This document shows positions 18,868 through 60,180 of a stretch of 64,000 nucleotides of DNA, piece after piece. The DNA is from Planctomycetota bacterium (lineage in GTDB: Bacteria > Planctomycetota > JACOTG01 > JAJDCM01). The notes beneath the pieces were generated by a model. The model was not told the origin of the DNA and did not search any database. It saw only the letters and a program-made list of their open reading frames with translations. The stretch is taken from the NCBI GenBank assembly GCA_029260825.1, contig JAJDCM010000367.1, positions 8,456 to 72,455 of the forward strand. The letters are read 5' to 3'. Every line of letters starts with the position of its first letter. The stretch's first letter is position 1. Position numbers and translations under genes: made by a program.

Positions 18868-20007
18868 ATGAATCGAAATGGCATCACGTTCGGAATCGCG
18901 TTTGGTATATTCATTGCTCTTGGCCTTCTTGCCAGGCCGGCGAAGGCTATTACGGTGTCGATTCCCTGTGGAACCCAAAGGTGCTTTCCAAATCTCGATC
19001 CCCCTTTAGCCCTTCAGTTCACCGTCGTGAATATCGGAGACTGCGCCGGAAAGATCCTGGCCTTTGACCAGATGGATTGCCAAGGAACGACTCTCGTATC
19101 CGCCTGTATCGATCCTGGAGAAGTGATTACGATTGATCGCGCATCACGGGATGTTCGATCCATCTTGCTTGTGGCAATTGGCACAGGAAGTCAGGCACGA
19201 CTCGACTTCACTCCGATTGCGGAAGAAACCGTTCCCTCCGGGACAGTTCTTCCCTTTGCCGGAACTACGGTTCCTCAGGGCTTCCTTGTTTGTGACGGAT
19301 CCGAGGTCTCCCGAGACAGTTTCTCCCGACTCTTTGATCGTGTGGGAACGACCTACGGTGCCGGAGACGGATCAACCACGTTTAACCTCCCGGACCTGAC
19401 TTCCAGGTTTCCGCTGGGTCTTTCCGCCTCAGGGACAGGTTCGATGCTTGGCGAGACTGGAGGTGAAATCGACCATATGCATGAGGGAGCAAGCCACACC
19501 CACGGAGTACCCGGACATAGTCACGGTCACAATCTCACAGCGTCGGCATCGGGTAATCATCTCCACTCGATCTCCGGAACGACGAACGCAACCGGAAATC
19601 ATTCCCACGCCGTGATCGGGACAACCGCAGTGGGAGGGCTTCATCGCCATTGCTTCAATGCACATCAGGTCGGCAACTACACCAATGATAACAACAACCC
19701 TCCCAGTGGAATCGTGGGACACGTACAAGGCGGAATCGCGGCCAACCAGCCACGAGATATCACGACCCAGAACGGTGAACATTCCCACAGTTTCTCGACC
19801 ACTTCTGCAACAGCAGGGACCCACAATCACTCTGTCTCAGGAACAGCCCTGTCCGCCGGAAATCATGTCCACAGCATTGGCGGCGTTGTAGGAAACAATG
19901 GAGGTGGGAACGGAGATCAAACATTGAACACCGATCCTGGGACGAATGGAACAACAGGGATCGCCAATCCACCCTTCTTGACTCTCCGATTCATCATCAA
20001 GCTGTGA
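18868..20007 (+). CDS. Secreted phage tail-collar domain protein with His-rich fibre repeats
   Basis: Signal peptide (AKA); PSGTVLPFAG...GFLVCDG...LFDRVGTTYGAGDGSTTFNLPDL; nine HxH motifs; PPFLTLRFIIK end. Confidence 0.88.
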   Translation: MNRNGITFGIAFGIFIALGLLARPAKAITVSIPCGTQRCFPNLDPPLALQFTVVNIGDCAGKILAFDQMDCQGTTLVSACIDPGEVITIDRASRDVRSILLVAIGTGSQARLDFTPIAEETVPSGTVLPFAGTTVPQGFLVCDGSEVSRDSFSRLFDRVGTTYGAGDGSTTFNLPDLTSRFPLGLSASGTGSMLGETGGEIDHMHEGASHTHGVPGHSHGHNLTASASGNHLHSISGTTNATGNHSHAVIGTTAVGGLHRHCFNAHQVGNYTNDNNNPPSGIVGHVQGGIAANQPRDITTQNGEHSHSFSTTSATAGTHNHSVSGTALSAGNHVHSIGGVVGNNGGGNGDQTLNTDPGTNGTTGIANPPFLTLRFIIKL

Positions 20008-20173: not shown

Positions 20174-20746
20174 ATGTCCTTTTTTCGGGGGATCTTCTTG
20201 GACGGATCGCGAGAACAGAATGCTCCCCTTGACGAGGAGCTCACCGACGAGGTTTACCGGGAGCTTCGACAGCTCGCCGCCTACTTCATGAAAGGAGAGA
20301 GACGGAATCATACTCTCCAACCAACAGCCTTGGTTCATGAGGCTCTGCTTCGGATCGCTTCGTCCCGGACTTCCGTCCATAGCCGATCCCAGTTACTTGC
20401 CGTCGCTTCCGTCGCTATTCGTCGAGTTCTCGTCGATCACGCCCGGGGGAAACAGCGAATCCGGCGAGGTCGCGGGGTTCCAACTCTTGAATTCACGGAA
20501 GCCGACTCAACGGTTGCTCCTGAATCTCCGTTTCGCATCGAACTCATCGAACTCGATGAAGCATTGATCGAGCTCGAGCAACTCCATCCCCGCCAGGCCC
20601 GGATCATTGAACTTCGCTTCTTTGGCGGCCTGAGTGTGGAGGAAACGTCAAAAACTCTTGGCATTTCTCAACGCTCCGCCTTTGCGGACTGGGAGATGGC
20701 ACGACGATGGTTGAAGCGCCGACTAGCGCCCTGCGAGCCCGAATAA
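20174..20746 (+). CDS. ECF sigma factor (TIGR02999-type, kinase-associated)
   Basis: VYRELRQLAA...HTLQPTALVHEA...VLVDHAR...IIELRFFGGLS...DWEMARRWL. Confidence 0.92.
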   Translation: MSFFRGIFLDGSREQNAPLDEELTDEVYRELRQLAAYFMKGERRNHTLQPTALVHEALLRIASSRTSVHSRSQLLAVASVAIRRVLVDHARGKQRIRRGRGVPTLEFTEADSTVAPESPFRIELIELDEALIELEQLHPRQARIIELRFFGGLSVEETSKTLGISQRSAFADWEMARRWLKRRLAPCEPE

Positions 20747-20747
20747 A

Positions 20748-23468
20748 ATGAGTCGTGCAAGTTTCTTCAAAGTTCGGGAAGCATTTCACACGATGCTAGA
20801 ACTCTCCAAACACGAGCGGTTGTCATTCCTTGCGACAATGGCCTCTCAAGATCCAGAGGTCCATGCGGAAGTTCTTTCCCTCATGGAGCAGGAACCGGAT
20901 GATCTTCTGGACGGTTTCCTCAGGGTGCCAGCGCTGGGAACAGGCTTCAGTGTGTGCGCGGCTGTTTTTCCGCAAGAGCCCCCATCCGTCCCGAATCAAC
21001 TGGGCAGTTTTCGAATCAAGAGGATCTTGGGAGGAGGCCTCTATAGTTTGGTTCTCCATGCCGAAGAGAACCGCCCGGACTGTCCCCCCCGATCGGTTGC
21101 CCTGAAAATCTTGAGGCCTGGATGCTGTTCCGAATCAATGCGTCGCCGCTTTATCGCGGAGGGCGATTCATTGCTTGCCATCACTCATGAGGATGTGGTT
21201 CGTGTCTTTTCTCGGGGAGTTTTCGAAGATTTCGGCCCATGGCAAGGCACCCCCTTCCTCTGTCTCGAATATGTTGACGGCACTTCTATTGACGAATTCT
21301 GTCGTCGGGAAACCCTGAATCGCCAGGAACGCCTTGACCTGTTTGCTCGGGTCTGTGACGCGATCCAGCATGCGCACCACAAAGGGATCATCCATCGCGA
21401 CCTCAAGGTGACCAACATCCTGGTCTCCAGAAGTAACCGCAAATACTCTCCAAAAGTCATCGACTTCGGGGTTGCCTTGAATTCCAAGGATGAACCATCG
21501 GCAACCTTGACGCGACACGGCGAGCTTCTCGGAACAATATCGAACATGAGCCCGGAACAACTTTCCGGAAACTCGAACGGTGTCGATACCCGAACAGATG
21601 TTTACTCCCTGGGCGTCGTCCTCTATGAACTCGTCACGAACCAGCCGCTTTGGGATCTGGAAGGGCTCTCTTTTCTCGAAGCAACTCGCGTCATTGCCGG
21701 GCTCGATCGCCCCCCGGCATGCGGCATCGATGGCGATCTTCGAACAATCATCACAAAAAGCCTGGAAAGAGAACGAGATCAGCGCTACCCGACCGTGTCA
21801 GAGCTTGCCGCGGACGTTCGCCGTTTTCGGGATGGCTTCCCGATCATGGCGCGGCCACCAACAATCCAGGGCATCCTTGCCCGGTGGGCGTGGCGGCATC
21901 GAGCCTTTACCATTCTCTCCGGAGTCACCTCGATCATCCTCCTCTTTGCAGCAATTCACTTCGTGAGGTCGAAAGCGAAGGCTTCCCGGAACAATCGAGA
22001 GATGAGGGACACCCTGAGTGCAGCTCTCGACATTTCCCTGAGCATCGCAGAGTTCCCCGAGAAATCTAAAACGCATGTCGCAAACCTGGAGGATCTGCAT
22101 TCGATCTCAAACGATCTTACCGCTCGTGATCCCGAGAATCGGGACTTTTGGGACTGCCATGCGACGATTCAAGGCGCACTCTCGGATGCGTACGTCAAAG
22201 AAGACAACCATTCCCAAGGTCGGGCCCTGGCCGAAGACTCGCTACGACTGAGACAGCGCCTTGTAGAAAGTGATCCGGGTTCCGTAGACCTTCGCAAGAA
22301 ACTGTCTCTTGCCTATGTCCGTCTCGGGGATGCTAAGAGACGAGAGGATGATTCCCAGGGGTCCCTTGAGGCATACCTGGAAGCTCTTCAAATCGACGAT
22401 TTCCTGGCTGCAGAAGGGCCCAATGAACGAGAGCTGCAGGACAACCTGGGTTGGAGTCACGACCGGATCGGTCACTACTACCTCGAAAGACGAATGGATG
22501 ACCTGGCAGCAGCCTGCATCGCAGATCAACTCAGAATTGCACGTTGGCTCGTTCAACGGTTCAAAGGGGATTACCGTGGTTACTTCCTTCTTTCCGAAGG
22601 ACTCAAGAAATCTCATGTGATCAGCGCTCGCAACAAAGATCCGCTTCAGTTCCGATTGAATCTTCTGGACGAAGCGCTGTCCGCTGCACGAAAGGCGGTG
22701 GAGCTCGAGCCTCGAAACGGGCTCCTTCAAGATCGGCTCGGATCGATTCTTATCCGGATCGGTAATCAACTGGATGACATGGACCCTTTGATGGCTCTTT
22801 CGCACCTCGATCAGGGAATATCCATCACCCGGGATCTCTATCGGGCCGATCCTTCCCGGACAGATTTGTTGAGTCGGATCTATTTCGCAGGAACGGGTCG
22901 AGCGAGAGCTCTTCTGATACTGGGCAGAACCGAGGATGCAGCTGTTCAGATCAATCAATCCGTCCAGGGGATTTCAGCGATTGTCTCGATCCGTGGGACA
23001 CACGTCATGCGCCGTCGACTCGCCAATGCTCTCCTGATCATGGTTGATGTTCTGGAGCGGCAGCTTCGAATCGAGGAAGCTAGCGAGGCACTCGTCCAAG
23101 CACACGGAATCAACCTTGATCTGGCGCGAGAATCCGATGATCCACTCACGGATCAGCTTCGATGCGGTCAATTGCTGATCAACCGCCCCGCACACCCGGA
23201 GGACCGGGACCGTGGGCTCAAAATGCTCCTAAATGGAAGTGACCGATTCCCTCAGGAGCCGTCTTTTCTGGAGGCAGCAATCCGTGAGTTGATTCGCGTC
23301 GAGGAGATCGGGGAAGCGCGCCTGAAATTGAAGGAATGGCTGGAAAAATATGGGGGATCGGTGGGAGCCCAGACAAGAACGAGAGTCATTTCCATCTTCG
23401 ACGAGATCGAAGAGGCCTCCGACAACGATCGATCATCTGAAAGCGGGCTTGAATCAGGATCTCGTTAG
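20748..23468 (+). CDS. Ser/Thr protein kinase with TM helix and TPR-like C-terminus
   Basis: VALK, HRDLK, DFG, MSPEQ, DVYSLG; starts 1 nt after the ECF stop. Confidence 0.9.
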   Translation: MSRASFFKVREAFHTMLELSKHERLSFLATMASQDPEVHAEVLSLMEQEPDDLLDGFLRVPALGTGFSVCAAVFPQEPPSVPNQLGSFRIKRILGGGLYSLVLHAEENRPDCPPRSVALKILRPGCCSESMRRRFIAEGDSLLAITHEDVVRVFSRGVFEDFGPWQGTPFLCLEYVDGTSIDEFCRRETLNRQERLDLFARVCDAIQHAHHKGIIHRDLKVTNILVSRSNRKYSPKVIDFGVALNSKDEPSATLTRHGELLGTISNMSPEQLSGNSNGVDTRTDVYSLGVVLYELVTNQPLWDLEGLSFLEATRVIAGLDRPPACGIDGDLRTIITKSLERERDQRYPTVSELAADVRRFRDGFPIMARPPTIQGILARWAWRHRAFTILSGVTSIILLFAAIHFVRSKAKASRNNREMRDTLSAALDISLSIAEFPEKSKTHVANLEDLHSISNDLTARDPENRDFWDCHATIQGALSDAYVKEDNHSQGRALAEDSLRLRQRLVESDPGSVDLRKKLSLAYVRLGDAKRREDDSQGSLEAYLEALQIDDFLAAEGPNERELQDNLGWSHDRIGHYYLERRMDDLAAACIADQLRIARWLVQRFKGDYRGYFLLSEGLKKSHVISARNKDPLQFRLNLLDEALSAARKAVELEPRNGLLQDRLGSILIRIGNQLDDMDPLMALSHLDQGISITRDLYRADPSRTDLLSRIYFAGTGRARALLILGRTEDAAVQINQSVQGISAIVSIRGTHVMRRRLANALLIMVDVLERQLRIEEASEALVQAHGINLDLARESDDPLTDQLRCGQLLINRPAHPEDRDRGLKMLLNGSDRFPQEPSFLEAAIRELIRVEEIGEARLKLKEWLEKYGGSVGAQTRTRVISIFDEIEEASDNDRSSESGLESGSR

Positions 23469-23543: not shown

Positions 23544-25826
23544 CTATTCGAAATACAAGAGAATGGAGTTCGTCACGCTGAAGTTTCTGCTAGCCGACGA
23601 ATCCCGGTTGTGAATCAGACCAATGATTGTCCAGTATGTTCCTGGAAGGAAGTTCGCCGGATCTCCACTGGGCCGATGCAGTGCGATCGCCGGAGCAATC
23701 GGGGGATCGGCCATGGGAGTTCCAAAATAGTTCGTGGCGCCGATCTTGTTCGGGCGTCCAATGGTATTCAGAACGATCGACGGATTCCCGCCCTGAGTGA
23801 GGAGAATCTGGTGACAGATCTGCCCCAGGCCAAATGGGAGAGCTACGAGACTGCTCTCATCCGGGATCCCAGGAGTGACATGGATAACGTAAGATCCGTT
23901 ACTGTTCGCAGGAGGGTTCCCCATCACAATCGCCAGACTGCCGGAGGGACTCAGCTGCCTGAAAGGAATCGAGGAGCCATTCACCCTGAGGATGTTCATG
24001 ACATCGCTTCCTTGACAGTCGTCGATGCTGTTCTCAACAAACTCGAAGGCTCCCGGAATCGTGGCGGAACCACACGAGGAGTTTACGTTGACATCGACGA
24101 TTGCGGCCGGGGCAGCCGCCGTCCTCACCAACAGGGTGGTATCCGTCGAGGCCCCATGAACAACCATCGGAGTGCCGCCGAAGTCCACGTTCACATTCCC
24201 CTGAAGAAGTCCGGTTCCGGTGATCGTGACCAGGGTTCCTCCGGTGCTAAGGCCTTCGGTGGGAGTGACTGCACTCACCGAGAACGGAAGACAAGCATCA
24301 TAGGTAAAGCTACCGGCAAGAACATCTGAACCGCAGCTATTGGTGACCGTGACGTCAACAGTACCGGCGGCTCCGGCAGGAGTCACCGCATCGACGAAGC
24401 GAAAACCGGTCGTATCGTACACGGTGACACTCGGGCTCGGGACACCACCAAAAAGGACGGTGGTATCGGCGGAGTGGGTCATTCCATCGGCGGTGATGGT
24501 TACGACCTCGCCGCCTGCATCGTAGCCGTTTGCGGGGTCAAGACTGTTCACGGCGACCGCACTGCACGCTCCTAGCTCCAGGTGCCAGATGCAATCGGAA
24601 TCGGCGACAAGGATCTCGATCAACCCATCGCCGTCCAGATCACCCAGCCCTGCAATACTGTCTCCGAACGAATCACCGGTGACTCCGGAGAAGCCGCCGG
24701 TATTCGAGGCGATCTTCACCTCGGAGAGAGCGCGATAGACCCCATCTTGTGTGAGAAGGTGAATGTATACACCGCCATCGCCGGTGGGCCCAAGATCCCT
24801 GGGAGCGCCAAAGGCAACGTCGTCGATGAGATCACCATCCACATCACCGATGTTGTCGAGGGCATACGCAAACTGGGAGCGGACGTTGGGGATACACTCG
24901 AAGGGTCGATGAACGTGAAAACTGTTGAGATTCAGGCCACCGGTTGAGTCCTTCAAGTAGGCAACCGCTGCCGCCCCCCAGCTATCCATTCCGTTGATCC
25001 AGTCGACCCCGTATGCCCCCACGATGACGTCCTGGAGCCCGTCGCCGTTTCGATCTCCAGCGGAAGCGAGGGAGCTACCGAAGAACTGGTTGTCTTCACC
25101 AAAGAAAGTGAGGCCCGGAAGGTAGGGGCTGAAGTCCTCGGACTTCACGGTTCCGTCCGAGTTGAGCGCGAGGGACCACACACCTCCACTGTCGATCTCA
25201 CCAAAGGTTCCCGATCGGGGAACGCTGACCATGATGTCGGGAACACCATCGGTGTCGAAATCGCCAACGGCGGCGATCGCTGTTCCGAACTCATCGGTCT
25301 GACCGAGGGGCCCGGTGAATCCGGAAAGACCTTCTCCAATGATGGTCTCGTCCTTCACGGTTCCGTTCGTGTTCATGAGAAGAATGTGGACATAGCCCTG
25401 AGTCCCGCCGATGAACCCTCCGTCGGCGGCGGGTGCTCCCACCGCAAGATCGCAGACGCCGTCATCATCGACATCCCCGATGTTCTCGGTGGTGTAGCCA
25501 AAAAAGGTGCCGTCCACATCGGCCTGCAGTCCACCAAGACCGGTACCAATCTGTGCCGTCGAGCTGAAGGTGCCGTCGGTATTGAGGAAGGCGATGGTCA
25601 AGATGTCCGAGGTGACAATCGTGTAGGCGATGTCAACGATCCCATCCCCATCAAGATCACCGATATTGGACAGACCGTTCACGCTGGAGATCGGGATGGC
25701 CGTCTGAGAGACGACCTCACCGGCAATCTGCGCGGCGGAGGGAAAGGCAAAAAGGGCGAGTGAAAGCAGGGTGCACATCAGGATGTGGATTCGGGTTCTC
25801 GTTCCGAATCGAGACTCATCTTGCAT
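23544..25826 (-). CDS. Secreted FG-GAP/integrin-alpha repeat protein with two IPT/TIG domains and an unnamed C-terminal domain
   Basis: Repeated IGDLDGDG/FG...GAP motifs; GGEVVTIT and GGTLVTITGTG TIG domains; AAGGAG RBS before MQDES. Confidence 0.85.
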   Translation of the reverse strand: MQDESRFGTRTRIHILMCTLLSLALFAFPSAAQIAGEVVSQTAIPISSVNGLSNIGDLDGDGIVDIAYTIVTSDILTIAFLNTDGTFSSTAQIGTGLGGLQADVDGTFFGYTTENIGDVDDDGVCDLAVGAPAADGGFIGGTQGYVHILLMNTNGTVKDETIIGEGLSGFTGPLGQTDEFGTAIAAVGDFDTDGVPDIMVSVPRSGTFGEIDSGGVWSLALNSDGTVKSEDFSPYLPGLTFFGEDNQFFGSSLASAGDRNGDGLQDVIVGAYGVDWINGMDSWGAAAVAYLKDSTGGLNLNSFHVHRPFECIPNVRSQFAYALDNIGDVDGDLIDDVAFGAPRDLGPTGDGGVYIHLLTQDGVYRALSEVKIASNTGGFSGVTGDSFGDSIAGLGDLDGDGLIEILVADSDCIWHLELGACSAVAVNSLDPANGYDAGGEVVTITADGMTHSADTTVLFGGVPSPSVTVYDTTGFRFVDAVTPAGAAGTVDVTVTNSCGSDVLAGSFTYDACLPFSVSAVTPTEGLSTGGTLVTITGTGLLQGNVNVDFGGTPMVVHGASTDTTLLVRTAAAPAAIVDVNVNSSCGSATIPGAFEFVENSIDDCQGSDVMNILRVNGSSIPFRQLSPSGSLAIVMGNPPANSNGSYVIHVTPGIPDESSLVALPFGLGQICHQILLTQGGNPSIVLNTIGRPNKIGATNYFGTPMADPPIAPAIALHRPSGDPANFLPGTYWTIIGLIHNRDSSASRNFSVTNSILLYFE

Positions 25827-26029
25827 CGGTTCTCCTTCTCTTGACTGGATGTGGCTCATCAAACTCAGATGACCGGACACTGCCTTCCAGTTCTCGAGAA
25901 GCACGATCCGAACGAGAAATGTGGAAATATTCTGGATCCGATGAATTCAGGTGACTTTGGTGCCCAGATCAGGCGATTAGCACGAGAACGCAGCCCTTCC
26001 ACTCGCTCTGGAATCGATTTTCGATGACA

Positions 26030-28843
26030 TCACGGTCTCACTCGCCGGATCACCCGAACCCCGGGCCGCCCCCACCGGGCGTTGTCCAGGACGCCGGCCC
26101 GGGCCGCTGACCTGCACTTGATGGGAGTATCCGTGCTTCCCCCTCCACGGATCGGGTACCGATGACCTTCCTCCCAGTCCCGGGCAAAATAGCGCAGTCC
26201 ATCGCCGGGCCGGGCTTCCATTGTCGTGTAGGCCCGCCGAATGAAAACATCTGCGGCCAGTTCCCTGGCGTTACCGTGCATGTCGTACAGACCGAACGGA
26301 TTGGGCAAGAAACTGCCAACCGGAGCATTGCCCCGAAAGCGGTCATCGATTTGCTGGCTTGGCTTTCCAAAGACGGGAGATTCCTCCTGCCCCACGGATC
26401 GGTCCCAAACATTGGCGTGATTTTCGAGAGACGCAATGGAGTTGCCTGTGTAGAAAGCCGTCGTGGTCCCCGCCCGGCACGCATATTCCCACTGGGCTTC
26501 GCTTGGAAGTTGAAGCCAGGTTCGATCAAGAACTTTTAGCAGAGCAATCCGATTGGATAGGATCGGAAGAGCACTATGGCTTTGACTTGGCAGCAAGGTT
26601 CCGCCCAGTCGAACAAACTGGGCTCCGGTGAGCTCGTATTTCGAAACAAAGAATGGATCGAGCAGAACGGAGTGGGCCGGTTGCTCCTGATCGAGGTCCA
26701 ACGCGGGAATCGGCTCCTCGAAAGGAACCCCAGTCGATCTCGTCCCAACTTCAACCACACCTCCGGGAAGCAAGACCATCACGATCCCGGTTTCGGCGTC
26801 GATCTCAAGTCGACATGGGTCGTCCGGCGTCGGCTCCGCTCCGGGAATTGCCCCACTGATCACATGGACGAATTCCCACAATCCGCTCTCTGAATTGCGT
26901 CGCAGTGGAAAAAGCCCCATCTGGGGTTCGATCTTGAGGCCCCGGTAGACTTCCAGTTCGGAGATTTCTCTCTTGGCTCGATCCCATTCGGCGGCCGGGT
27001 CCAACATCGATGTCTTGTGTGCAAAGCGAATCCCTTGCTCGTGGGCAAGAACCTTTTTTTCCAGATCCAGTAATTCTCGATATTCCGTTTCGATGAGACG
27101 AGTCAACATGGCATGGCGCCATTCTTCGCTCCGGGTCCCGAACGTCCAGGTTCTTCTGTGGTCCTTGGTGGAAAGCTTGTCGATGAGCCGCTTGAGGTTG
27201 ACAAGCTCAGCGTCGTTGTAGATGTTGAAAGCTTCGGGATCGTCCGCCCGCTCCATGAGATCTTCCAGGCTCCGGAGCTCCTTGCGAAGACCAGCAATCC
27301 TCTCCTCATCGGGGGCTCGATCCATCCTCTCCTCTTCCTCCGTATACGGAAGTGCATTCTCGCGGATGGAGGTGAGCTCCCTCTGATAGATCGAGTACCT
27401 CTTGCGGACCTGGTCAACCTTGCCATACCAGTTCCCCATCTCTTCGAGACGTCCCGGGTCCATCGGCCAGAACGACCAGGCCTCCCGGGTCATCTTGGCG
27501 ATCCAGTGCGAGTCGGCCAGAAGCTGGATGCGTTGAAGGGCCACCCGTTCTCGCGCCGCGGTGAAGACAGCGAAAAAAAGCAACAAGGAAAAAAGCGCCA
27601 GGGAAAGGACGACGATCGGATGGCGTCTCGAGAAGATGCGTGCTCGGGCCGACCACCCAGGACCGGTGGCGACGACGGGCATTCCGGCAAGAACGTTTGC
27701 GAGATCCCGAGAAAAATCGACGGCACCCGAATACCGGGAGTCCGGTTCCCGGCTCATCGCTGTGAGACACACCATCTGAGCGTTCCGCGGGATCGCCGGA
27801 TTCCAGGTACGCGGAGTTCGCACATCCCCCGCAATGATCCGTTGCATCGTCCCCTCGTTGGAACCAGACTCGAAAGGGTCTCGGAGAGTGAGGCTCTTAT
27901 AAAGTGTTACCCCGAGAGAGTAGATGTCGGTTCGCTTGTCGGTTGCGGTCGATCCACGAACCTGCTCGGGCGACATGTATAGCAACGAACCGACCTGGGT
28001 TCCCGTTCGAGTGAGTTGAGTTGCATCGCTCGAACGAGCGAGTCCAAAATCAATCAGGACCGTCCGCCCGGCCGGAGTCACCCAGATATTGGAAGGCTTG
28101 ATGTCTCGATGCACGATCCCCCGGTCGTGGGAGTGATCGAGAGCCCGGGCAACTGCTTGAGTGATACGAATACAGGCCTCGCTCCAGGTTCCTTCGAACA
28201 GGGCTGGAAGCTCCACGGGCGAGACTTCGTCTTTTGCCCCGGAAGACCGAGCCTGAAGATCAAGGATCGCTTTGAAAAGATCCTCGCCGGTGAGTGCTTC
28301 GGGCTGCCGACCTTCGAAACAACCGAGCACATCGTGGAGAGTGGATCCTTCGAGCCATTCCATGACAAAAAACGGGATCTCTCGATCTTGGCCAACGGAA
28401 ATCACCGACACAATGCCCGGATGTTCGAGCCGTGCAATGGCCTCGACTTCCCGCCGAAAACGCGCCACATCTTTTGAGTCGTAGATTCGATCCGGCCGGA
28501 TCACTTTGAGAGCAACGCGGCAAGCCTGAGTCCCCTGCTGGGCCAGGTAAACAACCCCCATCCCCCCGCCGCCGATTTTTCGGATCAGGCGAAACTCACC
28601 GAGCTGTTCGGGAAAGCTTGCAGGAGTGCCGGCGGATTTTGAATCCACCAGCCCCATGGCATCCAATCGTTGAAAGCCTTCCCGGAGCTGCTGAGCATGG
28701 TTCGGATGCTCGGCGCACATCGCCTCGAGAGCACCCCTTCCCTCCTTCGATACGCGCTCAAGGCAAAGAAAGAGCAGCTCGTCTCGGATGGTTGGTGAAC
28801 CGGATTCTTCGGGATTCACAGACATCAGGAGGCCTTTCACCAC
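26030..28843 (-). CDS. Ser/Thr kinase - FGE/SUMF1 domain fusion
   Basis: GGGGMG, HRDIKPSN, DFG; LPSEAQWEYACRAG, PNPFGLYDMHGN. Confidence 0.92.
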   Translation of the reverse strand: MVKGLLMSVNPEESGSPTIRDELLFLCLERVSKEGRGALEAMCAEHPNHAQQLREGFQRLDAMGLVDSKSAGTPASFPEQLGEFRLIRKIGGGGMGVVYLAQQGTQACRVALKVIRPDRIYDSKDVARFRREVEAIARLEHPGIVSVISVGQDREIPFFVMEWLEGSTLHDVLGCFEGRQPEALTGEDLFKAILDLQARSSGAKDEVSPVELPALFEGTWSEACIRITQAVARALDHSHDRGIVHRDIKPSNIWVTPAGRTVLIDFGLARSSDATQLTRTGTQVGSLLYMSPEQVRGSTATDKRTDIYSLGVTLYKSLTLRDPFESGSNEGTMQRIIAGDVRTPRTWNPAIPRNAQMVCLTAMSREPDSRYSGAVDFSRDLANVLAGMPVVATGPGWSARARIFSRRHPIVVLSLALFSLLLFFAVFTAARERVALQRIQLLADSHWIAKMTREAWSFWPMDPGRLEEMGNWYGKVDQVRKRYSIYQRELTSIRENALPYTEEEERMDRAPDEERIAGLRKELRSLEDLMERADDPEAFNIYNDAELVNLKRLIDKLSTKDHRRTWTFGTRSEEWRHAMLTRLIETEYRELLDLEKKVLAHEQGIRFAHKTSMLDPAAEWDRAKREISELEVYRGLKIEPQMGLFPLRRNSESGLWEFVHVISGAIPGAEPTPDDPCRLEIDAETGIVMVLLPGGVVEVGTRSTGVPFEEPIPALDLDQEQPAHSVLLDPFFVSKYELTGAQFVRLGGTLLPSQSHSALPILSNRIALLKVLDRTWLQLPSEAQWEYACRAGTTTAFYTGNSIASLENHANVWDRSVGQEESPVFGKPSQQIDDRFRGNAPVGSFLPNPFGLYDMHGNARELAADVFIRRAYTTMEARPGDGLRYFARDWEEGHRYPIRGGGSTDTPIKCRSAARAGVLDNARWGRPGVRVIRRVRP

Positions 28844-28881
28844 CGATCTCCTCGACGACCAGCGATGATCTCAACAGCTGG

Positions 28882-31788
28882 TTATTCGATGCAAAGCACC
28901 ACCGCATTCGTCACGCTGAATGGGGTGCTCCCAAGACTTCCGCTGTCCTGAAGAAGTCCCTGTAGGGTCAACTTGATCGGGTTTGCAAGACCTTGAGGCC
29001 GGGTAACCGAGAAGGGTGCTCGAGCCGGAGAGGGATTCTCCGTCGCCCCGAAACAGACGATCGGAGGAGTTCCCGTGGATCGAAGGCAGAAAATGGGCTG
29101 GGGCGAAAACCCACTGTTGAGGGGAGTCGGCTTCGCAAAGCACCCGATCAATTCACCGTCCAGCGAGAGAGACGCAGACGGTGCATTCGAAAAGCCACCG
29201 GCCCAGGTCCACAGAACATACCGAGCGTTGGCCGCCGGCCCACTGGCACTTGCGTCCATCGATATCGTGAGAGGAGTACCCGTGCTCAGAGTGACCGTCC
29301 GCTGAGCTCCGCCAATACCACCATTGACCTGCAACACCCCTTGAGGCGTTCCCGACGCCCCCTCATTCACGTTTCCATCCACGCAATTGACGACGGTGAA
29401 CGCCAGAGCCTCAACCTTCCAGATCACAGGCGTGTTCGGCGGAGAAGTGATCGACGTTTCGAGGCCGTCCGTCGCGAAGGCATAGATCACGTGATCACCA
29501 TCTTCAAGAACCTCTGTTTGTCCCGTCCCCATGTCCCCCAATGGCGTTGCCAGGCTCCACTCGCCTCTCACAGTATCGACCTGATAATAGATCTGGGAGA
29601 TCGGGGGCGCGTTTGGCATGAACGTGCTGGTAGCCTGGAATGTGAATTCCGGCTGCCGTGTCACGGAGACATTCCCCGGAAGCGGAGAAATGGTGACATC
29701 AAACGGAACGAACGATTCTACCTGGGAGTCAATCACTGAAACACTATTGCTATTATTGTTCACCACGTAGACCCGTCCCGTGACCTGATTCACGGCAAAA
29801 CCCTGGGGGAGGCTACCGACTGACACGGATCGGGCACAAGAGTCTCCTCCGAAGATCGTCACTCCTCCATCGAAACGAGTCGCGACATAAACGTGGTTTG
29901 TGGCCGGATTGATGGCCAATTCGCTCGGGCTGTCTCCCACGCCGATAAAAGAACTCTGGTTGAAATCTTCGCTCACCACACAGACCTCGTCCTGACCGGG
30001 CAAAGCAACATAGACGGTTCCCGTACAAGGACTCACAACCACTCCTGCCGTTTGAGAATTGAGGGGGAAAGTATCTTCGATCAAATTCGAATCGCCGTTG
30101 ATCCGGGTCAGGGACTCGGAGATTGAACCGGCCACAAAGACCTTGTTGCTAGCCGGACTGATCGCGATCCCCGAGGGAAAGACCCCGACCGAAGAGACCG
30201 TTTGAACAATGTTCTTTCGGTCGTCGATCACCGTCACGTTGTTGCTGTCCTGGTTAAGAACATAGATCTTGTTCGTAGCCTGGTTGATCTCAATCGCGAT
30301 GGGATAGTCACCCACCGGTATGGTCGTCGTTGAATGATCCCGCCCGTCAATGACGGTGACCGAGTCATCATTTTGATTGGCTACGTAGGTCTTGTTCGTT
30401 ACGGAATTTACGGCAACAACTCTCGGGCAGTCTCCAACGAACACAGTCTCTGTCGAGTTGTCCGATCCGTCAATCACCGTCACAGAATTACCTTGATCAT
30501 TGGCGACATAGATCTTGTTGGTGACCTGATTGACTGCGACCGCAGTCGGTGTATCTCCAACGTTGATCGTGTCATCCACCGAGTTGAATCGGCCATCAAT
30601 GACGGTAACCGTGTCATCCAGAGCGTTTGTGACGTAGACAAGATTGGTCACCGGGTTCACGGCGGCTTGAGCTGGGAATCCACCGACAGCAACCGTTCTA
30701 TTCGAGTGCTCCGTCCCATCCAGAACAAGAACATCAAAGGCCATCGCGCAGAAGATTTCGTTCGTCACTGAATTGATTGCGAGACCACGGATTATTCCGG
30801 TATTCCTCCCCTCCATCGCCAAGCTGCTTCCATCCACGATCACCGAATTTGATGAACTATTAGCACCGAGAACAATCTCATTCGTGATTGTGTTCACTAC
30901 AAGCAGACCCATGTCTCCCACGGTGAGACTGGATCCCGAGTTATCCAACCCATCGATGATCCGCAACGTCCCCGCATTGGTGGTCAAATAGATCATATTT
31001 GTCACCGGATTGACTCCGATGGATCGAGGCCGGGCACCAATCAGAATTTCCTGCGTGGAGTTATTCGTGCCATCGATTGCGATCACGCTATCGCTTCCCT
31101 CGTTCATGACATAGATCTTGTTCGTCACCGGGTTCACTGCGAGCGCCGTCGGGCCGACTCCGACTGGCACGGTCTGGGTCGACTCATTGACACCATCGAT
31201 GACGGTGACGGTATTACTTCCGATGTTGACAACATAAGCTTTGTTCGAAACGGGGTTCACCGCAATCGCGATTGGGAACATCCCCGCGGCTACGTGAGTC
31301 ACTGAATGATCGTTCCCATCAATGACTGACACGGTATTGTCATCCGTGTTGCTGACGTAGATCTTGTTAGAAATCGAATTCACGGCAATGTGCCTTGCTT
31401 CCATGCCGACGTCAACCGTGGCGACAGCTGTCTCGCCGATCGTGTCGATAACAGTCACCTTGGCATCACTTCGAGAAACGGCGTAGAGAAAATTCGTCAC
31501 AGGATTCAGAGCCAAAACGCCGTTAGTCCGACCTGTAGATAGGCATCTTTGGGTCCTTGACTTCGAATCGAAAATGTCGATGACATCCGAGTCTTCGGTG
31601 GAAACATAGACCTGCCCCGTAACCACATTCACGACGACAGAATCTGGTGAATCGTTAGTATTGATCAAGGACTCGGCTCGAGCGACGGAAGTCGTCAAAA
31701 CGCTGGTCATGATCCAAAGAGCCATGGCGAATCCGCCGTGCAGCCCCATCTTGCCCGCACGGTTTCCGGGATCCTGAGTCATGTACAT
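28882..31788 (-). CDS. Secreted YVTN/YncE beta-propeller repeat protein with an unnamed C-terminal domain
   Basis: Many AVNPVTNKIYVxN...VTVIDG repeats; signal peptide ending ARA; GAGGAG RBS. Confidence 0.9.
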   Translation of the reverse strand: MYMTQDPGNRAGKMGLHGGFAMALWIMTSVLTTSVARAESLINTNDSPDSVVVNVVTGQVYVSTEDSDVIDIFDSKSRTQRCLSTGRTNGVLALNPVTNFLYAVSRSDAKVTVIDTIGETAVATVDVGMEARHIAVNSISNKIYVSNTDDNTVSVIDGNDHSVTHVAAGMFPIAIAVNPVSNKAYVVNIGSNTVTVIDGVNESTQTVPVGVGPTALAVNPVTNKIYVMNEGSDSVIAIDGTNNSTQEILIGARPRSIGVNPVTNMIYLTTNAGTLRIIDGLDNSGSSLTVGDMGLLVVNTITNEIVLGANSSSNSVIVDGSSLAMEGRNTGIIRGLAINSVTNEIFCAMAFDVLVLDGTEHSNRTVAVGGFPAQAAVNPVTNLVYVTNALDDTVTVIDGRFNSVDDTINVGDTPTAVAVNQVTNKIYVANDQGNSVTVIDGSDNSTETVFVGDCPRVVAVNSVTNKTYVANQNDDSVTVIDGRDHSTTTIPVGDYPIAIEINQATNKIYVLNQDSNNVTVIDDRKNIVQTVSSVGVFPSGIAISPASNKVFVAGSISESLTRINGDSNLIEDTFPLNSQTAGVVVSPCTGTVYVALPGQDEVCVVSEDFNQSSFIGVGDSPSELAINPATNHVYVATRFDGGVTIFGGDSCARSVSVGSLPQGFAVNQVTGRVYVVNNNSNSVSVIDSQVESFVPFDVTISPLPGNVSVTRQPEFTFQATSTFMPNAPPISQIYYQVDTVRGEWSLATPLGDMGTGQTEVLEDGDHVIYAFATDGLETSITSPPNTPVIWKVEALAFTVVNCVDGNVNEGASGTPQGVLQVNGGIGGAQRTVTLSTGTPLTISMDASASGPAANARYVLWTWAGGFSNAPSASLSLDGELIGCFAKPTPLNSGFSPQPIFCLRSTGTPPIVCFGATENPSPARAPFSVTRPQGLANPIKLTLQGLLQDSGSLGSTPFSVTNAVVLCIE

Positions 31789-40896: not shown

Positions 40897-43641
40897 TCAG
40901 TCGACCTTCCTCGCCGGCCGAACCCCAAGTGCGTTATACTTCAAACCCGCTGAATCATAAAACCGGGACGAGGATCTACAGCCGGAAGGAGGATCAAGAA
41001 AGCTACCACCACGCACCACAGCGTTGATCTCCGCACCCGGAAAACTCACCTCACGCAAACCATCTCCTGGGCGAACAGGAAACGAGTAGGAACCGGATGG
41101 GTCGCGGCACCACTCGGAGACATTTCCCAGGACATCATGCAGCCCAAAAAGATTGGGACGAAACGAGCCGACCGGAGCGTGGATCACGTAGCCGTCATCG
41201 AGAGACTCCTCACAATCCAGCCCAGGGCGACGGATCTGTGCCATTCGAAATCCATCCGAAACGTTGGCGGCATTCGCAAGAGAGGAGACCTCATTGCCAG
41301 TCCACCAGCTCCCCGTGGTGGATGCCCGAGCCGAATATTCCCATTGAGCTTCCGTGGGCAGAACGAGTCGGAGTCGACCAAGAACATCGGCGCACTGGTA
41401 TCGATCCACATTCTCAACCGGATGAATGAAAGAGTGTGGAGACTTGGACCGACTCCACCATTCCTCCCAGTTGTTTGCACCACAATAGCTGGGATTCTCG
41501 CCGGTCGTACGCATCCACTGGGCCTGATTCATTTCATACTTGGAAAGAAAGAACGGGTCCAGAGTAACGGTTCGTACAGGACCCTCGTCCCCTCCAGCAA
41601 ACGGATCTCGATTCGGACCTGCAGTCCGTCTCTTTACCGCTCCCATCCGGAATGATCCGCCAGGAATGAGAACAAACACGAGGCCCGTGTCCGTGTCGAT
41701 CAAGATCTTTCCCGTTTCATCACGACCGGGCATCTTGCCCGACTGCAGAAGCAGGAACTCCCACAGCCCCGATTCGGAATCGCGCCCGATGGGAACCAAA
41801 CCGACCTGATGGTCCATCTGCAACCCCTCGTAGGCAGGGCACTCCTCCTGGTTCGCGATGGATCGAATCGCTTCTTTCCATTCCCCCGCGTAGTCTTCGA
41901 CCGACTCCTTGTAGATTGCGCTCGCTCGGTTCAATCTCTGCTGAACATCGGCAATGAGCCCAATCGCGGGATCAGGATCAACAAAGGTTTCAAGTTGAGT
42001 TACGAGTTCCGCCAGGACATCGTTAATCCACTGGGCTTCCGTGTCTTCAAACCTGTAGGAACTCGCGCCAGGAATAGGTTGCCCCGAATCCTCGGCTTGC
42101 TTGATGGCGCCCTTTCGAATCCGGCCCAGGGTTTCCCGATGCTTCTGTCGATTTGCCGCAAGGTCCTTGGCGTTTTCAAGCCAGGCCTCCATGTCATCAA
42201 TTCTCTCGGGATAAGCGGGCCATAGTGATCCGGCGGAGGAGGTAGCATCCGCCAGCCGCTTCGCGTCGGAAAGCTGAAGGATCTCCTTTTTCTGTGCGCG
42301 CTCCCGCTCTTCTGCTCTTTCTGCAGCCTCGCGCGCTTCTCTCTCCTTGGCTTCCGCCTCCTGAGCACGAATTCTCTCCTGATCAGCCAGAGACCAGCCT
42401 TCTTTTGCTTCCGCCTCTCGACGCTCCGCGAGGGAGCGCGCCTCCTGGGCATCGACAGTTGCCGAAGCGGCTCGAAAGTAAAAAACCGTAGCTGTGATTC
42501 CTCCCGCAACGACGACCAACAGGATCGCCGCGATGCTACTCACCAGGCCAGCGTTCTTCTTCACGAACTTCTTGATGCGGTAGCCCCCGCTGGGAGGGCC
42601 CGCAGAAACAGGTTCGTCATTGAGATGACGTTGAATGTCGGCGGCCAGGTCGGATGCGGTGGCATAGCGGCGGGTTCGGTCCTTCTCCAGCGCTTTCATT
42701 GTGATCCAGTCCAGATCACCTTTAAGACGGCGAACCAGCGCATGCCCACTCACCTGACAGCGAGATGACGCAACGGACGTCAGGCTTTCCTCAGATCCGA
42801 TCTTCGTGCTCGGTTTCTTGGGCTCTTCCTCCCAGAGTCGTCTTCGCACCGCATCCACCGCGCCTCGGGGCTCCTGGGTTGGATGCGGCGTCATCTCAAG
42901 AGGAAGAGAACCCACGAGAAGCTGGTAGAGGATGACACCCAGCGAATAGATGTCGGTTCTCGTGTCAATGTCGAGAGTTGTCGGGTCGGCCTGCTCCGGA
43001 CTCATGTAATCCGGAGTTCCCATCATCACGCCGATTGATGTGACACATGTCTTGTCTGTCAACCGGTGCCCTCCGATGGCCTTTGCAAGACCAAAGTCGA
43101 TGATCTTCGGGATGGGCCGGTTGTCTTCTTCCGAGACGATGATGTTGGAGGGTTTGAGATCCCGATGAATGATTGCCTTTTGATGAGCGTGCTGGACGCC
43201 AAGGCAGATGTCCCGGAACAACTCCAGGCGCTCCCGGATCCGGAGCTTCTGCCGATCGCAATGCTCGATGAAAGGGATTCCCTTCACGTACTCCATGGCG
43301 AAATACGGCCGTCCATCCCGGGTAGCACCGGCAAGAAGAATCCGAGAAATATTGGGGTGGCTCATCAGGGCCAGTGCCTGTCTCTCCGATTCAAACCTGG
43401 CGATGACCGATTCGGTGTCCATGCCGGCTCTTATGACTTTGAGCGCGACCTTTTGCCGAACCGGTTCTTGCTGCTCGGCAAGATAAACGGTCCCCATCCC
43501 ACCTTCACCGATCGTGGAAAGGATCTTGTAAGGACCGATGGTCTCGTGAGTCGGGTGTGGAGTGCGAGTAAAACCCGGTTCCTCGTCGGAAAACCGGGTT
43601 GGTTCCTCCGAATCGCCGAAGGAAAAGTCGTCGTTCATCAT
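40897..43641 (-). CDS. Ser/Thr kinase - FGE/SUMF1 domain fusion
   Basis: [27 protein letters not shown]; [25 protein letters not shown]. Confidence 0.92.
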
Positions 43642-43819
43642 TCTTGTTTTGGCCCCTGGAGAGTTTTCTCTCTCCCAATGATAGGGGGCCAAAAGGCCGC
43701 TTGCAAGCCTCCCTCCCATTCGCACGGTCGGTACCAGACGTAGGGCCACCAAATCGGGGGCGTGTCATCCCCCGCGGAGCATCCGGTCGATCCGAGGATT
43801 CGGATCCCAAGACATCCTT

Positions 43820-49828: not shown

Positions 49829-50774
49829 CTATTCCTCCCGAAGATACCCCAGCTCGCTCAACCGATCCCTGACCTCTTTGGAGAGCAGCACTTGATCAGC
49901 CTTTTCCTGGTGAAACCCCGTTCGCTTCACCAGCTGAGAGAAAAACTCGGCAGTTTCCCTCTCAGCTCTGGACAGATCCTGCAGCTCCCCCGGGTCCTTG
50001 CGTAGATCGTAGAGGTATTCGCGCCGGACATCCTCTTCACCGGTCAAATATCCAAACCCCGCCCAACGGATATACCTCCAGGAGTCGCTGCGTACCGAGG
50101 TTTCGTCGACACCTGCCGGAAGGTCTCTTCGGCTAATCGCCATCAGCCTCTCCTCGAACTCACCGGAGTGAATAAGAGGCAAGAGCGAAACACCCTCCAC
50201 ATTCTCAGGAATGACAATGTCGACCATTTCCAGCAGTGTCGGCATGATATCCAGGCCCCGGACTTGCCGTCCGATCCGCTTTCCCCGAAGCGATTCGCCA
50301 GGAGGCTTGATCAACAAGGGGACACGAAGTAACTCGTCGTGCAGAGTGTCTGCGTGCCTGCCAATAGCCCCGTGCTCGTTGAACTCCTCGCCGTGATCCG
50401 ACGTGAACACGATCACGGTGTCCTGATAGACGTTCTTTTCACGCAAGTAGGAAATCAACGCTCCGAAGGCTTCGTCCATTCCTCGCACTTCGGCGTCGTA
50501 GGAGCGAACGATATGAGCGAGATCTCCTGGTCCTAAGTCAATCTTTGGCTGGACGATGCCGTTGAGCCGATCTAGATACTCCACCGAAATATTCAGAGGC
50601 AATGACCAGATGGTCGTATCGGAGCGTATCGATTGAAATCAGAATGACATTGGGTCGAAAACTGAATTGACACTCAGTCCTGGCCAGGATGATGACCCCG
50701 CCCCCGAGGAAAGCACCGAAGATCAAAATAGCAGCGACTATCTTACTCCGACCTTCAGGTGGTTCCACCTTCAC
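49829..50774 (-). pseudogene. Sulfatase with a large internal deletion
   Basis: RPNVILISIDTLRYDHL is joined out of frame, near 50605, to the C-terminal half (YDAEV, TSDHGEEF, LRVPL); no CxPxR motif. Confidence 0.8.
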
Positions 50775-52433: not shown

Positions 52434-55400
52434 TCACCGGTTGCAAGCTCCATTCTGCTCGGCGAGCTTCCGGGTCTGTTGGCACAACTGCCAGCAGTCG
52501 TCATCCCTGGAGAGAAAGCGCTCGGCTTCGTCAAGAGCATCCAGGGCTTCATCGGCTCTCCCCAGATCAACAAAACCCATCGCCAAAAAGACAAGGGCAC
52601 CAGGTCGAATCTCTTCGACCCCTTTTGCTTCGGAACGAACAAGATCCTCAAGACACATCACACCGTCCAACGAGTCTCCGCACCGAATCCTCGCGGCCCC
52701 CAAATTCCGGAGATAGAGCGGAACTTCCGTATCAAGTCCAAGCGCGATGATCGAAGCATCTCTGGATCTAGACCAGGCGTCGCTCCCGGAACCGGAGTCC
52801 AAGAGGGTTCTCCAGGTGCGCCATGCAAGTCGACGCGGGTCATTTCCCTCGGCCCGAATGACCTGCTTCATGGCCCGGCGCTCGTCGTCACCCCGGAAAG
52901 AGACTCCGGATATGAATTCCAGTCGCTCTCCCACATTCATGTCACTCGAATTCGTTTGATCGAGTCGAGCCGCCACCTCTTCCCGAAGGATTCTCTGCTG
53001 CTTCCGGACCGATTTCTCTTCCACGGAGCGCCCCTGCTCCCAAAGCCTCACCGTTCGATCTTTCGATGCCGACGCCAGAGTTGCTCCTGAAGGACTGAAG
53101 GACACCGAATTGACCCACCAGCTATGACCGAGAAGGCGGGCAACCACCTTCATGGACTCCACGTCCCAGATCAGGATGCTTCGGTCCCTTGCACCCGAAG
53201 CTAGCCGGCTGCCATCCGGTGTAAAGCTAAGGGAGGTGACCCCGCGCGAATGGGCCTTCTCACGACGAAGTGGAACCAGCCCCATCCCCCGGATTTCCCA
53301 GATCTGGATCGATCCGCCGGTGCTCCCTCCGAACAGACGAGATCCATCCGGCGAAAAACAAAGGGACAGGATCGAATCTTCGGCACCGAGACTCGAACTC
53401 ATCGCTGACCAGCTCGAAGTCTGCCACAGCTTCACTTCCCCGTCCGTCGATGCTGAGACAAGCCATCCTTCGTCTGGAGAAAAAACGAGGTCCGTGATGC
53501 CACTCCCATTTCCTTCGAGAACTCGAAGGATGCTCATGGCATCCGGATCCCAGATCAAGATGGTTCCGTCGCTTGATCCCGACGCCAACCATCGGCCGGA
53601 AAGTGAGTAAACGACCGAATCAACCCAGCCCGTGACCTCCGCGCACCGGGTGACGGCACCGGTGGAAAGATCTACAAAGCATACTGCGGGGGACCGGGTC
53701 CCGACGGCAAGCTGGTTTCCCCCGGGGTTAAACGCGACGTCGTGGACATGATGCCTGGCATAGTAAGTACCGATATCGATGGCCGATTCGGCATCCCACA
53801 CCTTGATGACATAGTCCCAGCCTGCGGAAGCAAGCCGCCTTCCTTCAAGATCCCAGGCGACGGCCTGAACATAGACCGGGTGCCCCCTCAGAACCTCCAC
53901 GTCGGAAGAAACCGAATCGCTCCAGAACTTCACGGCTCCCTCGAATCCACCCGAAACAAATATCTTGCCCTTCGGTGATACCGCAAGAGCTGTAATAGGT
54001 TTCTCATGACCTCGAACAATCGACTCAACTTTCTCGGTCTTCGTGTCCCACCACCTCAAACTCCGATCTTCGCCGGCCAGAAGGACCTTGTTGGGAGATG
54101 AGGGATGGGAAAGACCAAAGGCGATCCTGTCCGTATCAGAGCCATAGTGGCTCTCGACCCGATCTTCGCGTCCAAACGTCTGAACTCCATGACTGATGGA
54201 CACGATACTCTCATCGCTTCTGTCGTAGAAAGCCCTGACCTTCCCAGGAAACCGATCCAAACGTCGAACAAGCCGTCCGGTTTCCGCATTCCACTCACAC
54301 ACACCGGACGCGCTCGTGAGAATCCGATCGCCTCCATGATTGTAGGTCAAGCTGATGACATCGGCCCGATCAGCCGCGATCACAAGAATCTCTCGCCCCG
54401 AAACAACGTCGATGACGCGAACTTCCGGTCCGACCGCAATTGCTAGGGAATGCCTTTCCGGATGAAGCGCAATGTCAGGGACCGATCCCCTCTTCGACCG
54501 GAAGAGTTCGCCGACTTCCCCCCCGGTCTTCAGGCTCCACTTTTTGACCGACCCGTCCTCTGATCCGGAAATCAGCACTTGCTTTGAAAGAAATTTCACT
54601 GCATGCACAAGACCCTCATGCCCCTCGAAAGAATGGACCAGGGTTCGCTTTTCCGTATCCCAGACCTCGATCATGTTTCCGTAGGCGACGGCCAGAAGTT
54701 CTCCATCCGGGCCAAAGGAAAGAGATCGAATCCAGCTCCCGAACTCGAGGGTGCAATCACTCTGATCAAGCCTCCCGTAGAAGTGATGCCACTCCCAGTT
54801 CCGGAGAGAAGCCGGTGCCGCCTCGAGCTGCCGCCGTGCTTCCGGCACATCATTGATCCTTAGCGCCGCCTCCGCCGCGCTCATGCTGGCGATATAGCTC
54901 TGAAGCAGAGCCTCTTTCCGCTCGGAGGCAATTGCCCTCTTTGCCCGATTCTCCTGAACCATCAAGGCGGACGGAGTCACCACGACAAAAACAAGGATCA
55001 CCAGAGACGCCGCTGCAATGAAGCGATTTCTTCTGACCCACTTCTGGAGATCAACCAGTGGCCCGATACGATGAGCAGCAACGGCTCGCCCATCAAGATG
55101 GGCTTCGAGATCTTCCGCCATGTCCAGCGCACTCGAATATCGCTTCTTGGGATCGCGCGTCATGGCCTTGCTGCAGATGGCCACGAGCTCGGGATGAGCA
55201 TCGGGATTGATGCGATCGACGGCAACCGGTTCACCCCGATTGATCTTCTCCACGATGTCTTGCTGTTGCCCACCACGCTTCACATCTTCGTACGGCCTTT
55301 GATCCGCGAGAAAAGAATAGAGAATCGCACCAAGAGCATAGATATCCGAAAAGGGCCCGACCGCCAGCGGGTCACCGGAAGCCTGCTCGGGCGACATATA

Positions 55401-59986: not shown

Positions 59987-60180
59987 AGTTTTGACGAAGA
60001 CGGTCTTCCCGATGTTCTGGTTCCAAGTTATCTCGAGCATGGAGCAACCATCTTTCCCAACGCTTCTTGAATCCTCAACTATGCCTGGAAGGAAATGTGA
60101 ACGCATCCTTGGGGCCCACGACTGATGTCTTGCAGGTGAATGGTTGCTTCGTAAACCCAACTCGAACCCAACGCTCTTCT
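59987..60180 (+). pseudogene. Remnant of an FG-GAP protein carrying the start of the shared C-terminal domain
   Basis: SFDEDGLPDVLVPSY...TIFPN, then a frameshift to CLEGNVNASLGPTTDVLQVNG. Confidence 0.7.

Follow-up and report, generated by a model that had tools for sequence, protein, structure and literature searches.

A C-terminal beta-sandwich domain of Planctomycetota proteins as a candidate envelope-targeting or anchoring module

We investigated a domain at the C-terminal end of two proteins encoded in a 64,000-nucleotide stretch of a Planctomycetota genome (contig JAJDCM010000367.1 of assembly GCA_029260825.1, positions 8,456 to 72,455; hereafter, the window). One protein carries FG-GAP and TIG repeats and the other a YVTN/lactonase-type beta-propeller, and a prediction made from the sequence of the window had claimed that their tails are collinear copies of an unnamed domain attached to different passengers, as we call the remainder of each protein. 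Our analysis indicates that the two tails belong to one family of about 165 residues, which has no named relative in the databases searched, occurs in about one gene in thirty of this genome, and lies almost always at the very end of the protein. These features point to a common C-terminal envelope-targeting or anchoring domain of Sec-exported proteins that would be read by one shared partner, a reading to which we give an about even chance of being right. The window is part of contig C298 in a genome of 8.37 Mb (425 contigs, 56% G+C, 90% complete), from which we derived 71,654 stop-to-stop open reading frames (ORFs) of at least 60 amino acids (aa) and, separately, a crude set of 6107 genes; gene calls, the signal-peptide heuristic and passenger clusters came from simple home-made scripts.

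Compared directly, the two tails share 26% identity across a collinear alignment of 179 columns, and BLASTP between them was significant for the last 28 residues only (E = 2e-4). Pairwise BLAST alone is nearly uninformative here, and a claim of homology on that basis is shaky. A hidden Markov model (HMM) built from relatives of the YVTN tail, with the FG-GAP/TIG tail left out, matched the omitted tail at E = 1.6e-12 (model positions 20-169). Searching the ORFs by phmmer with either tail gave many overlapping matches, and two rounds of HMM building converged on 205 of the 71,654 ORFs, with one domain in each; the final HMM matched none of the same number of reversed ORFs. We judge the two tails to be homologous because the leave-one-out model recovered the omitted tail and because the matches across the genome had no counterpart in the reversed set. 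The positions and passengers given in the original prediction were borne out, as was its expectation of many further matches in the genome. In the called gene set, the domain is present in 196 of 6107 genes (3.2%). Nine of the 205 copies are incomplete, several because of contig ends.

The HMM comprises 171 positions. The domain starts with the pattern G-N-V-N ... D-V-L-x-V-N-G-S, with a Cys three residues ahead of the first, conserved Gly in 83 of 180 copies; its middle contains an L-Y-x-W and P-T-P-L region and a T-x-Q-G-x-I-x-D strand, and an S-V-T-N turn with an invariant Asn follows. Beside this Asn, a set of G, N, G, G, P, Q and D residues is near-invariant in all subfamilies. Between the invariant Asn and the stop lie exactly seven residues in 129 of 182 copies and eight in 28 more; both tails in the window have seven, and that of the YVTN protein also shows the GNVN...VLQVNG start and the SVTN motif. 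Hydrophobic residues alternate in this terminal stretch, which ends in a polar or charged residue (E 52, Q 42, R 22, P 18, D 16). From the fixed spacing of seven or eight residues, it follows that the end of the chain belongs to a fixed last strand. Of 196 copies extending to the end of the model, 192 lie nine residues or fewer from the stop codon (80 at zero, 46 at one and 36 at two residues), and the domain is C-terminal in 148 of the best 150 database representatives. Short representatives consisting of the domain only look like truncated gene calls that start inside a TIG domain. An intramolecular isopeptide or ester cross-link was considered and dropped: no invariant Lys or His stands beside the invariant Asn and the near-invariant Gln and Asp.

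AlphaFold2 models of the tails (169 and 167 residues, built with a 78-row alignment) are beta-sandwiches with the same strand order and 10-12 secondary-structure elements. The predicted local distance difference test (pLDDT) and predicted template modelling (pTM) scores were 95.4 and 0.90 for the YVTN tail and 90.5 and 0.87 for the FG-GAP/TIG tail. The domain is thus predicted with confidence to be an independently folding, immunoglobulin (Ig)/macroglobulin-like beta-sandwich, which is a fold class and not a functional family. No named relative emerged. Pfam and NCBIfam contain no family that either tail matches at E ≤ 10, and a profile search of PDB sequences returned nothing significant (best E = 0.0057, over 30 residues). 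Foldseek found no PDB structure at E ≤ 1e-3; its best match, the C-terminal accessory sandwich of a glycoside hydrolase family 158 (GH158) laminarinase, is weak (E = 2.6e-3, TM 0.34), as are the chitin-binding and lytic polysaccharide monooxygenase (LPMO) folds that also appear among its best matches. VIA-align against 48,161 chains gave none at Z ≥ 8 and 147 at Z ≥ 5, headed by macroglobulin and Ig domains at Z 6-7 (best Z 7.0, a macroglobulin domain). The nearest ESM Atlas clusters consist of hypothetical Planctomycetota proteins with no Pfam family in common. Whole-protein Pfam and NCBIfam scans likewise revealed no family common to all 80 database representatives or to all 40 own-genome carriers that were scanned, and named database members are labelled by their passenger or as hypothetical. 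A full-text literature search, which covered few subscription journals, found no description of such a planctomycete domain. The novelty claimed for the domain therefore held in the family databases (at E ≤ 10) and, with no close solved structure, in Foldseek.

Signal peptides, which had been expected on all carriers, proved to be enriched but not universal. By a crude heuristic, signal-peptide-like N-termini are present in 120 of 156 carriers, compared with 1275 of 3328 other genes of at least 300 aa; under a looser rule, the counts are 126 of 144 carriers and 1470 of 2963 other genes. We take this result as an enrichment, not as proof of export. Lipobox-like sites were found in 5 of the 156 carriers and a membrane-helix-like segment after residue 150 in 1, so that the carriers appear to be without another obvious anchor.

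The passengers are diverse. Those of 167 carriers fell into 54 BLAST clusters (sizes 38, 24, 16, 14, 8 and smaller, including 35 singletons), and we count them as at least 54 apparently unrelated passenger types. A random 40 of 153 eligible own-genome carriers contained 24 Pfam families, led by FG-GAP types and with at most 12 members per family; the other passengers include PD40, beta-helix, GDSL lipase, arylsulfotransferase, subtilase, glucose/sorbosone dehydrogenase, an esterase of the polyhydroxybutyrate (PHB)-depolymerase type and a multihaem cytochrome. The cytochrome carrier (L134, G000:C366:17166-19541, minus strand), with Cytochrome_C554 and C7 matches, CarboxypepD_reg and TIG, would be an exported redox protein with the same tail. 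Among the 80 database representatives, 31 Pfam families were found, the most frequent being FG-GAP (18), TIG (13), PD40 (7), Kelch (6), beta-helix (6) and HYR (5). One passenger has a CBM96 match, and no glycoside hydrolase was present among the families of the 120 scanned carriers (for the 80 representatives, among the 25 of 31 families listed). NCBIfam matches in the same 80 proteins comprised choice_anch_Q (6), a T9SS-dependent M6-like family (3) and a Leptospira SBBP lipoprotein family (5), all of which are passenger families that use other anchors elsewhere. The idea that the domain is shuffled onto exported proteins was partly upheld, by the 54 passenger clusters, and has to be qualified by the domain tree, which mostly tracks passenger families: in a FastTree phylogeny of the domains, the passenger-cluster label changes 75 times, against a minimum of 53 and 120.2 ± 2.5 with shuffled labels. 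Most of the expansion is therefore due to whole-gene duplication, atop many older joinings of the domain to different passengers.

In a profile search of 1.84 billion cluster representatives, 2131 proteins passed E ≤ 1e-3, of which 1821 reached E ≤ 1e-10 and 821 reached E ≤ 1e-30, and a second profile search, for 'longer' proteins, returned 4. Among 41 related genomes, all four of the window's order matched, as did all 86 candidates scored in each of them (out of 215-325 first-look candidates per genome), whereas 1 of the 37 other genomes of the phylum contained the domain. In a sample of 301 Planctomycetota genomes, a match at E ≤ 1e-5 was present in 24; because scoring covered 11 candidates in each genome, the per-genome counts are lower bounds. 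The 24 comprise the window's order, one family in which all genomes matched (f13, 5 of 5), five genomes of another (f71, with at least 9-11 matches each) and scattered others (at least 1-8), which belong to families f44, f47, f84 and f93 and to parts of f6 and f24. One carrier genome (G156, at least two copies) consists of a single 6.6 Mb contig, so there may be a relative in culture. Related loci in named records all come from metagenome-assembled genomes, titled Planctomycetota, Phycisphaerales, Planctomycetia or 'bacterium'. The domain is lineage-restricted and patchy, with huge expansions in one deep-branching, uncultured order, and its predicted lineage specificity is thus confirmed.

We infer a passenger-independent role in the destination of the protein, because the domain occurs as a single copy with a fixed last strand at the terminus, on proteins with export signals and no other anchor, with dozens of unrelated passengers, enzymes and a cytochrome among them, and in a patchy distribution with large expansions. 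The phyletic pattern resembles that seen for sorting systems. The signal peptide would carry the protein across the cytoplasmic membrane, and the domain would then fold in the periplasm, where one shared partner would recognise it. The partner would be either an apparatus for outer-membrane export or attachment or a polymer common to the envelope, and it would deliver passengers that have no other anchor to the cell envelope or surface, or hold them there. These passengers include propellers (FG-GAP, YVTN, PD40 and Kelch), beta-helices, arrays of HYR/TIG, a small number of hydrolases and the multihaem cytochrome.

The closest parallel is the C-terminal domain (CTD) of Bacteroidota's type IX secretion system (T9SS). 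According to one account (PMC11285876), that domain has 70-100 residues, forms a seven-strand, 3+4 Ig-like sandwich and bears a C-terminal motif required for export. The planctomycete domain resembles the type A and type B CTDs in that it folds as a beta-sandwich and closes the chain of Sec-exported proteins whose passengers are very diverse, in occurring once per protein and in many cargo genes per genome with low identity between copies, and in having the chain end within a conserved last strand. It differs in size, with about 165 residues and 10-12 predicted strands against 70-100 residues and seven strands in the same account. It further differs in matching neither Por_Secre_tail nor an NCBIfam CTD model, in its rare internal and N-terminal copies, and in its phylum, Planctomycetota. 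A distant topological relationship may exist; no T9SS CTD was among the 50 matches listed per fold search. We rejected membership in the T9SS CTD family, since sequence and size disagree and no machinery was found among the six T9SS families searched, although position, single copy and signal peptides agree. In the T9SS itself, PorU removes the CTD, and the cargo becomes linked to anionic LPS.

Other sorting and anchoring systems offer partial parallels. Like PEP-CTERM/exosortase, LPXTG, GlyGly-CTERM and MYXO-CTERM, the domain is a C-terminal tag on many exported proteins with patchy, lineage-specific expansions, and its passengers overlap the 'choice-of-anchor' families. Unlike these short signals of about 25-35 residues (motif, membrane helix and basic tail), for which sortase-like enzymes are the readers, it is a 165-residue globular domain with no membrane helix. 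The carriers were rejected as PEP-CTERM/exosortase substrates, given the single helix-like segment among 156 carriers and the occurrence of PF07589 on two other ORFs only. These two PEP-CTERM matches are adjacent (C21:10172-10868), and the genome also has three exosortase-family matches (G000:C180:1316-2077, C320:9522-9935 and C40:7073-7504); a second, small sorting system would therefore coexist with the large domain family. Non-covalent envelope anchors with a helical fold are exemplified by the SLH domains found in S-layer proteins. The planctomycete domain is similarly a terminal module common to many putative surface proteins that would tether them to a common envelope polymer, but it is a beta-sandwich and matches neither SLH nor another anchor family in Pfam; with no match at E ≤ 10 for either tail, SLH and other named Pfam envelope-binding domains were rejected. 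The domain, which belongs to neither family, has in our view an about even chance of acting in the manner of a T9SS CTD or of an S-layer-type anchor.

Several observations weigh against a targeting or anchoring role with one shared partner. The home-made signal-peptide heuristic has a high background, being positive for 38-50% of control genes. Contrary to the prediction, the domain is not strictly terminal: while the terminal position prevails in both sets, three full copies in the genome are followed by 146-352 residues (Table 1) and two of the 150 representatives deviate. The three genomic cases could be gene fusions or true internal uses; a fourth non-terminal case is a short fragment. Of the two representatives, P0156 has an internal domain, and P0136 (487 aa) has a signal peptide, the domain at residues 22-184 and then, by motif reading, an FGE-sulfatase-like domain, making it the only clear N-terminal use among the 150. 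With its 165 residues, the domain is roughly double a T9SS CTD in size and falls within the range of binding modules. Searches for a partner were also negative. Six T9SS families (Por_Secre_tail, SprA_N, PorV, PorU, GldM and GldL) had no matches in the 90%-complete genome, although four of the six models matched no control genome either; PF18962 (Por_Secre_tail) is one of these four, and three are among the five component models (PF14349, NF033710, NF033707, TIGR03517 and TIGR03513). Nine neighbourhoods from low-copy genomes share no gene, with crude ORF calls and some domain genes mis-called, and tblastn of the 6107 genes against low-copy loci found none beside the domain in three or more independent families.

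A more specific version of the targeting reading, and a doubtful one in our view, is that Planctomycetota have an undescribed pathway for outer-membrane export and surface attachment, with machinery that has no named family, and that the domain is its cargo signal. By analogy, such a pathway would be an independently evolved functional counterpart of type IX secretion with at least 200 cargo proteins per genome in the order and a handful elsewhere, which we put forward just as tentatively. The main rival reading, which seems comparably unlikely, is that the domain has no sorting role and is a general ligand-binding module, lectin-like, resembling a carbohydrate-binding module (CBM) or protein-binding, for a common external substrate such as a polysaccharide, a particle or a prey surface. 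The domain has the size and beta-sandwich class of CBMs and of accessory domains of glycoside hydrolases, the weak Foldseek matches to the laminarinase sandwich and to chitin-binding and LPMO folds fall in this class, rare internal and N-terminal copies are tolerated, and the passengers are mostly adhesin-like repeats. Binding modules, however, usually vary in position and occur in tandem, and the strict single-copy terminal position found here (one copy in each of the 205 ORFs) is atypical of CBMs; moreover, the carriers are mostly not carbohydrate-active enzymes, the families listed for the 120 scanned carriers include no glycoside hydrolase, and no structural match reached Z 8. A structural or assembly module with no dedicated receptor, for example an oligomerisation or lattice foot, or a folding or stabilising cap that is perhaps clipped after export in the manner of pre-peptidase C-terminal domains, is less probable again. 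It would suit the compact and confidently predicted independent fold, and the Cys before the conserved Gly, together with other Cys residues, suggests disulfides and an oxidising compartment; the agreement of the domain tree with passenger families (75 against 120 changes) is also what co-evolution with the passenger would produce. The 54 or more unrelated passenger types instead argue for a passenger-independent role, and the positions conserved in all subfamilies suggest one common interaction.

Gene neighbourhoods raise a further alternative, namely that the domain is a handle sensed by adjacent membrane Ser/Thr kinases, of which some have FGE-sulfatase-like outer domains, so that the domain proteins would act as ligands or co-sensors in cassettes of extracytoplasmic function (ECF) sigma factors and kinases. 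The genome has about 169 members of the kinase family and about 58 FGE-domain genes. A kinase-family gene lies within two genes of 40 of the 196 domain genes, compared with 15.6 ± 3.7 at random (maximum 27 in 500 draws). ECF sigma genes are near domain genes in 8 cases against 2.2 ± 1.4, a weak excess because the maximum of 500 draws is also 8. For FGE-domain genes alone, the enrichment is weak (10 of 58 against 5.4 ± 2.2; the observed value was reached in 39 of 1000 draws). Domain genes themselves are mildly clustered: 48 of 196 have a second one no more than two genes away, compared with 22 ± 6 at random. In the window, a kinase gene with an FGE-sulfatase-like domain and no copy of the tail domain sits between the two carriers, and P0136 appears to fuse the tail domain to such a domain, which may connect it with the FGE-like outer domains of kinases encoded nearby. 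Co-regulation explains the adjacency equally well, however, some 80% of domain genes lack a neighbouring kinase gene, and the fusion is single among 150 representatives. We consider a sensed handle very improbable. The adjacency suggests that cassettes of kinases and sigma factors control or sense individual exported proteins.

The movement of proteins across and onto the planctomycete outer membrane is poorly understood, and here about 3% of the genes bear the same unnamed domain. The HMM provides a sequence handle for predicting the exported or surface proteome of this lineage and fills an annotation gap, and the patchy distribution is suited to phylogenetic profiling for a cognate sorting or anchoring machinery. 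If the domain is a self-contained targeting module, it could serve as a display tag.

The features of the window and the non-terminal copies elsewhere in the genome are listed in Table 1. The N-termini of both carriers are signal-peptide-like as read from the translations; for the FG-GAP/TIG protein, the listed GTG start is probably too far upstream, and a Met 26 codons downstream opens the signal-peptide-like sequence.

Table 1. Features of the window (plain coordinates) and non-terminal domain copies on other contigs of the same genome (locations starting with G000)
Feature	Location	Strand	Evidence or remark
ECF sigma factor	20174-20746	+	Pfam; with the second kinase, beside the FG-GAP/TIG gene
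Second Ser/Thr kinase	20748-23468	+	Pfam; immediately adjoins the FG-GAP/TIG gene
FG-GAP/TIG + C-terminal domain gene (P0001)	23544..25904	-	ORF list, translation; Pfam FG-GAP, FG-GAP_3, two TIG
C-terminal domain copy 1 (FG-GAP/TIG protein)	23547..24047 (HMM-aligned part 23550-24035)	-	HMM E = 2.4e-27
Ser/Thr kinase with one predicted membrane helix and C-terminal FGE-sulfatase-like domain (P0002)	26030..28843	-	Translation, Pfam
YVTN/lactonase-type beta-propeller + C-terminal domain gene (P0003)	28882..31788	-	Pfam; TIGR02276 beta_rpt_yvtn E = 1.2e-45
C-terminal domain copy 2 (YVTN protein)	28885..29400	-	HMM E = 1.5e-58, model positions 4-171
Single FG-GAP-like motif	59990..60022	+	Three-frame translation; in another frame than the relic 50 bases downstream
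Third-copy relic, about 31 residues (CLEGNVN...VLQVNG)	60073..60165	+	hmmsearch --max, all window frames; E = 1.4e-6, model positions 6-37
Complete domain copy, then 352 residues (FG-GAP repeats)	G000:C204:4339-8352	-	
Complete domain copy, then 146 residues (unknown domain)	G000:C267:2721-4781	-	
Complete domain copy near the N-terminus, then 314 residues (PD40-like repeats)	G000:C155:2656-4260	-	

The third, broken copy that had been reported after an FG-GAP repeat is a real relic, but it is reduced to about 31 residues, and the 'repeat' is a single motif in a different frame. No further piece of the domain was found downstream of it in any frame of the window (hmmsearch --max), and Pfam FG-GAP is absent from the ORFs around 59990-60165 at E ≤ 1e-4. 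Relic and motif are consistent with a decayed, frameshifted gene of the FG-GAP plus domain type and do not amount to a third intact example. Just upstream of the relic, positions 58318-59945 contain a radical SAM/SPASM gene (58318-59445) and, directly after it, a 166-aa ORF with no Pfam family; the two could be a peptide-maturase pair.

The ECF sigma factor and kinase pair beside the FG-GAP/TIG gene is adjoined on its other side by a gene for a phage tail collar domain protein (18868-20004, plus strand; E = 8.1e-21), with no other phage genes around. The window contains two further large Ser/Thr kinases (40900-43752 and 52437-56339, both on the minus strand), one with an FGE-sulfatase-like domain and the other, of 1301 aa, with WD40 propellers. 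A sulfatase ORF (49832-50602, minus strand) aligns with no more than the final third of the Sulfatase model (positions 201-300) plus the SGSH_C part, and is probably a truncated gene or one with a mis-called start.

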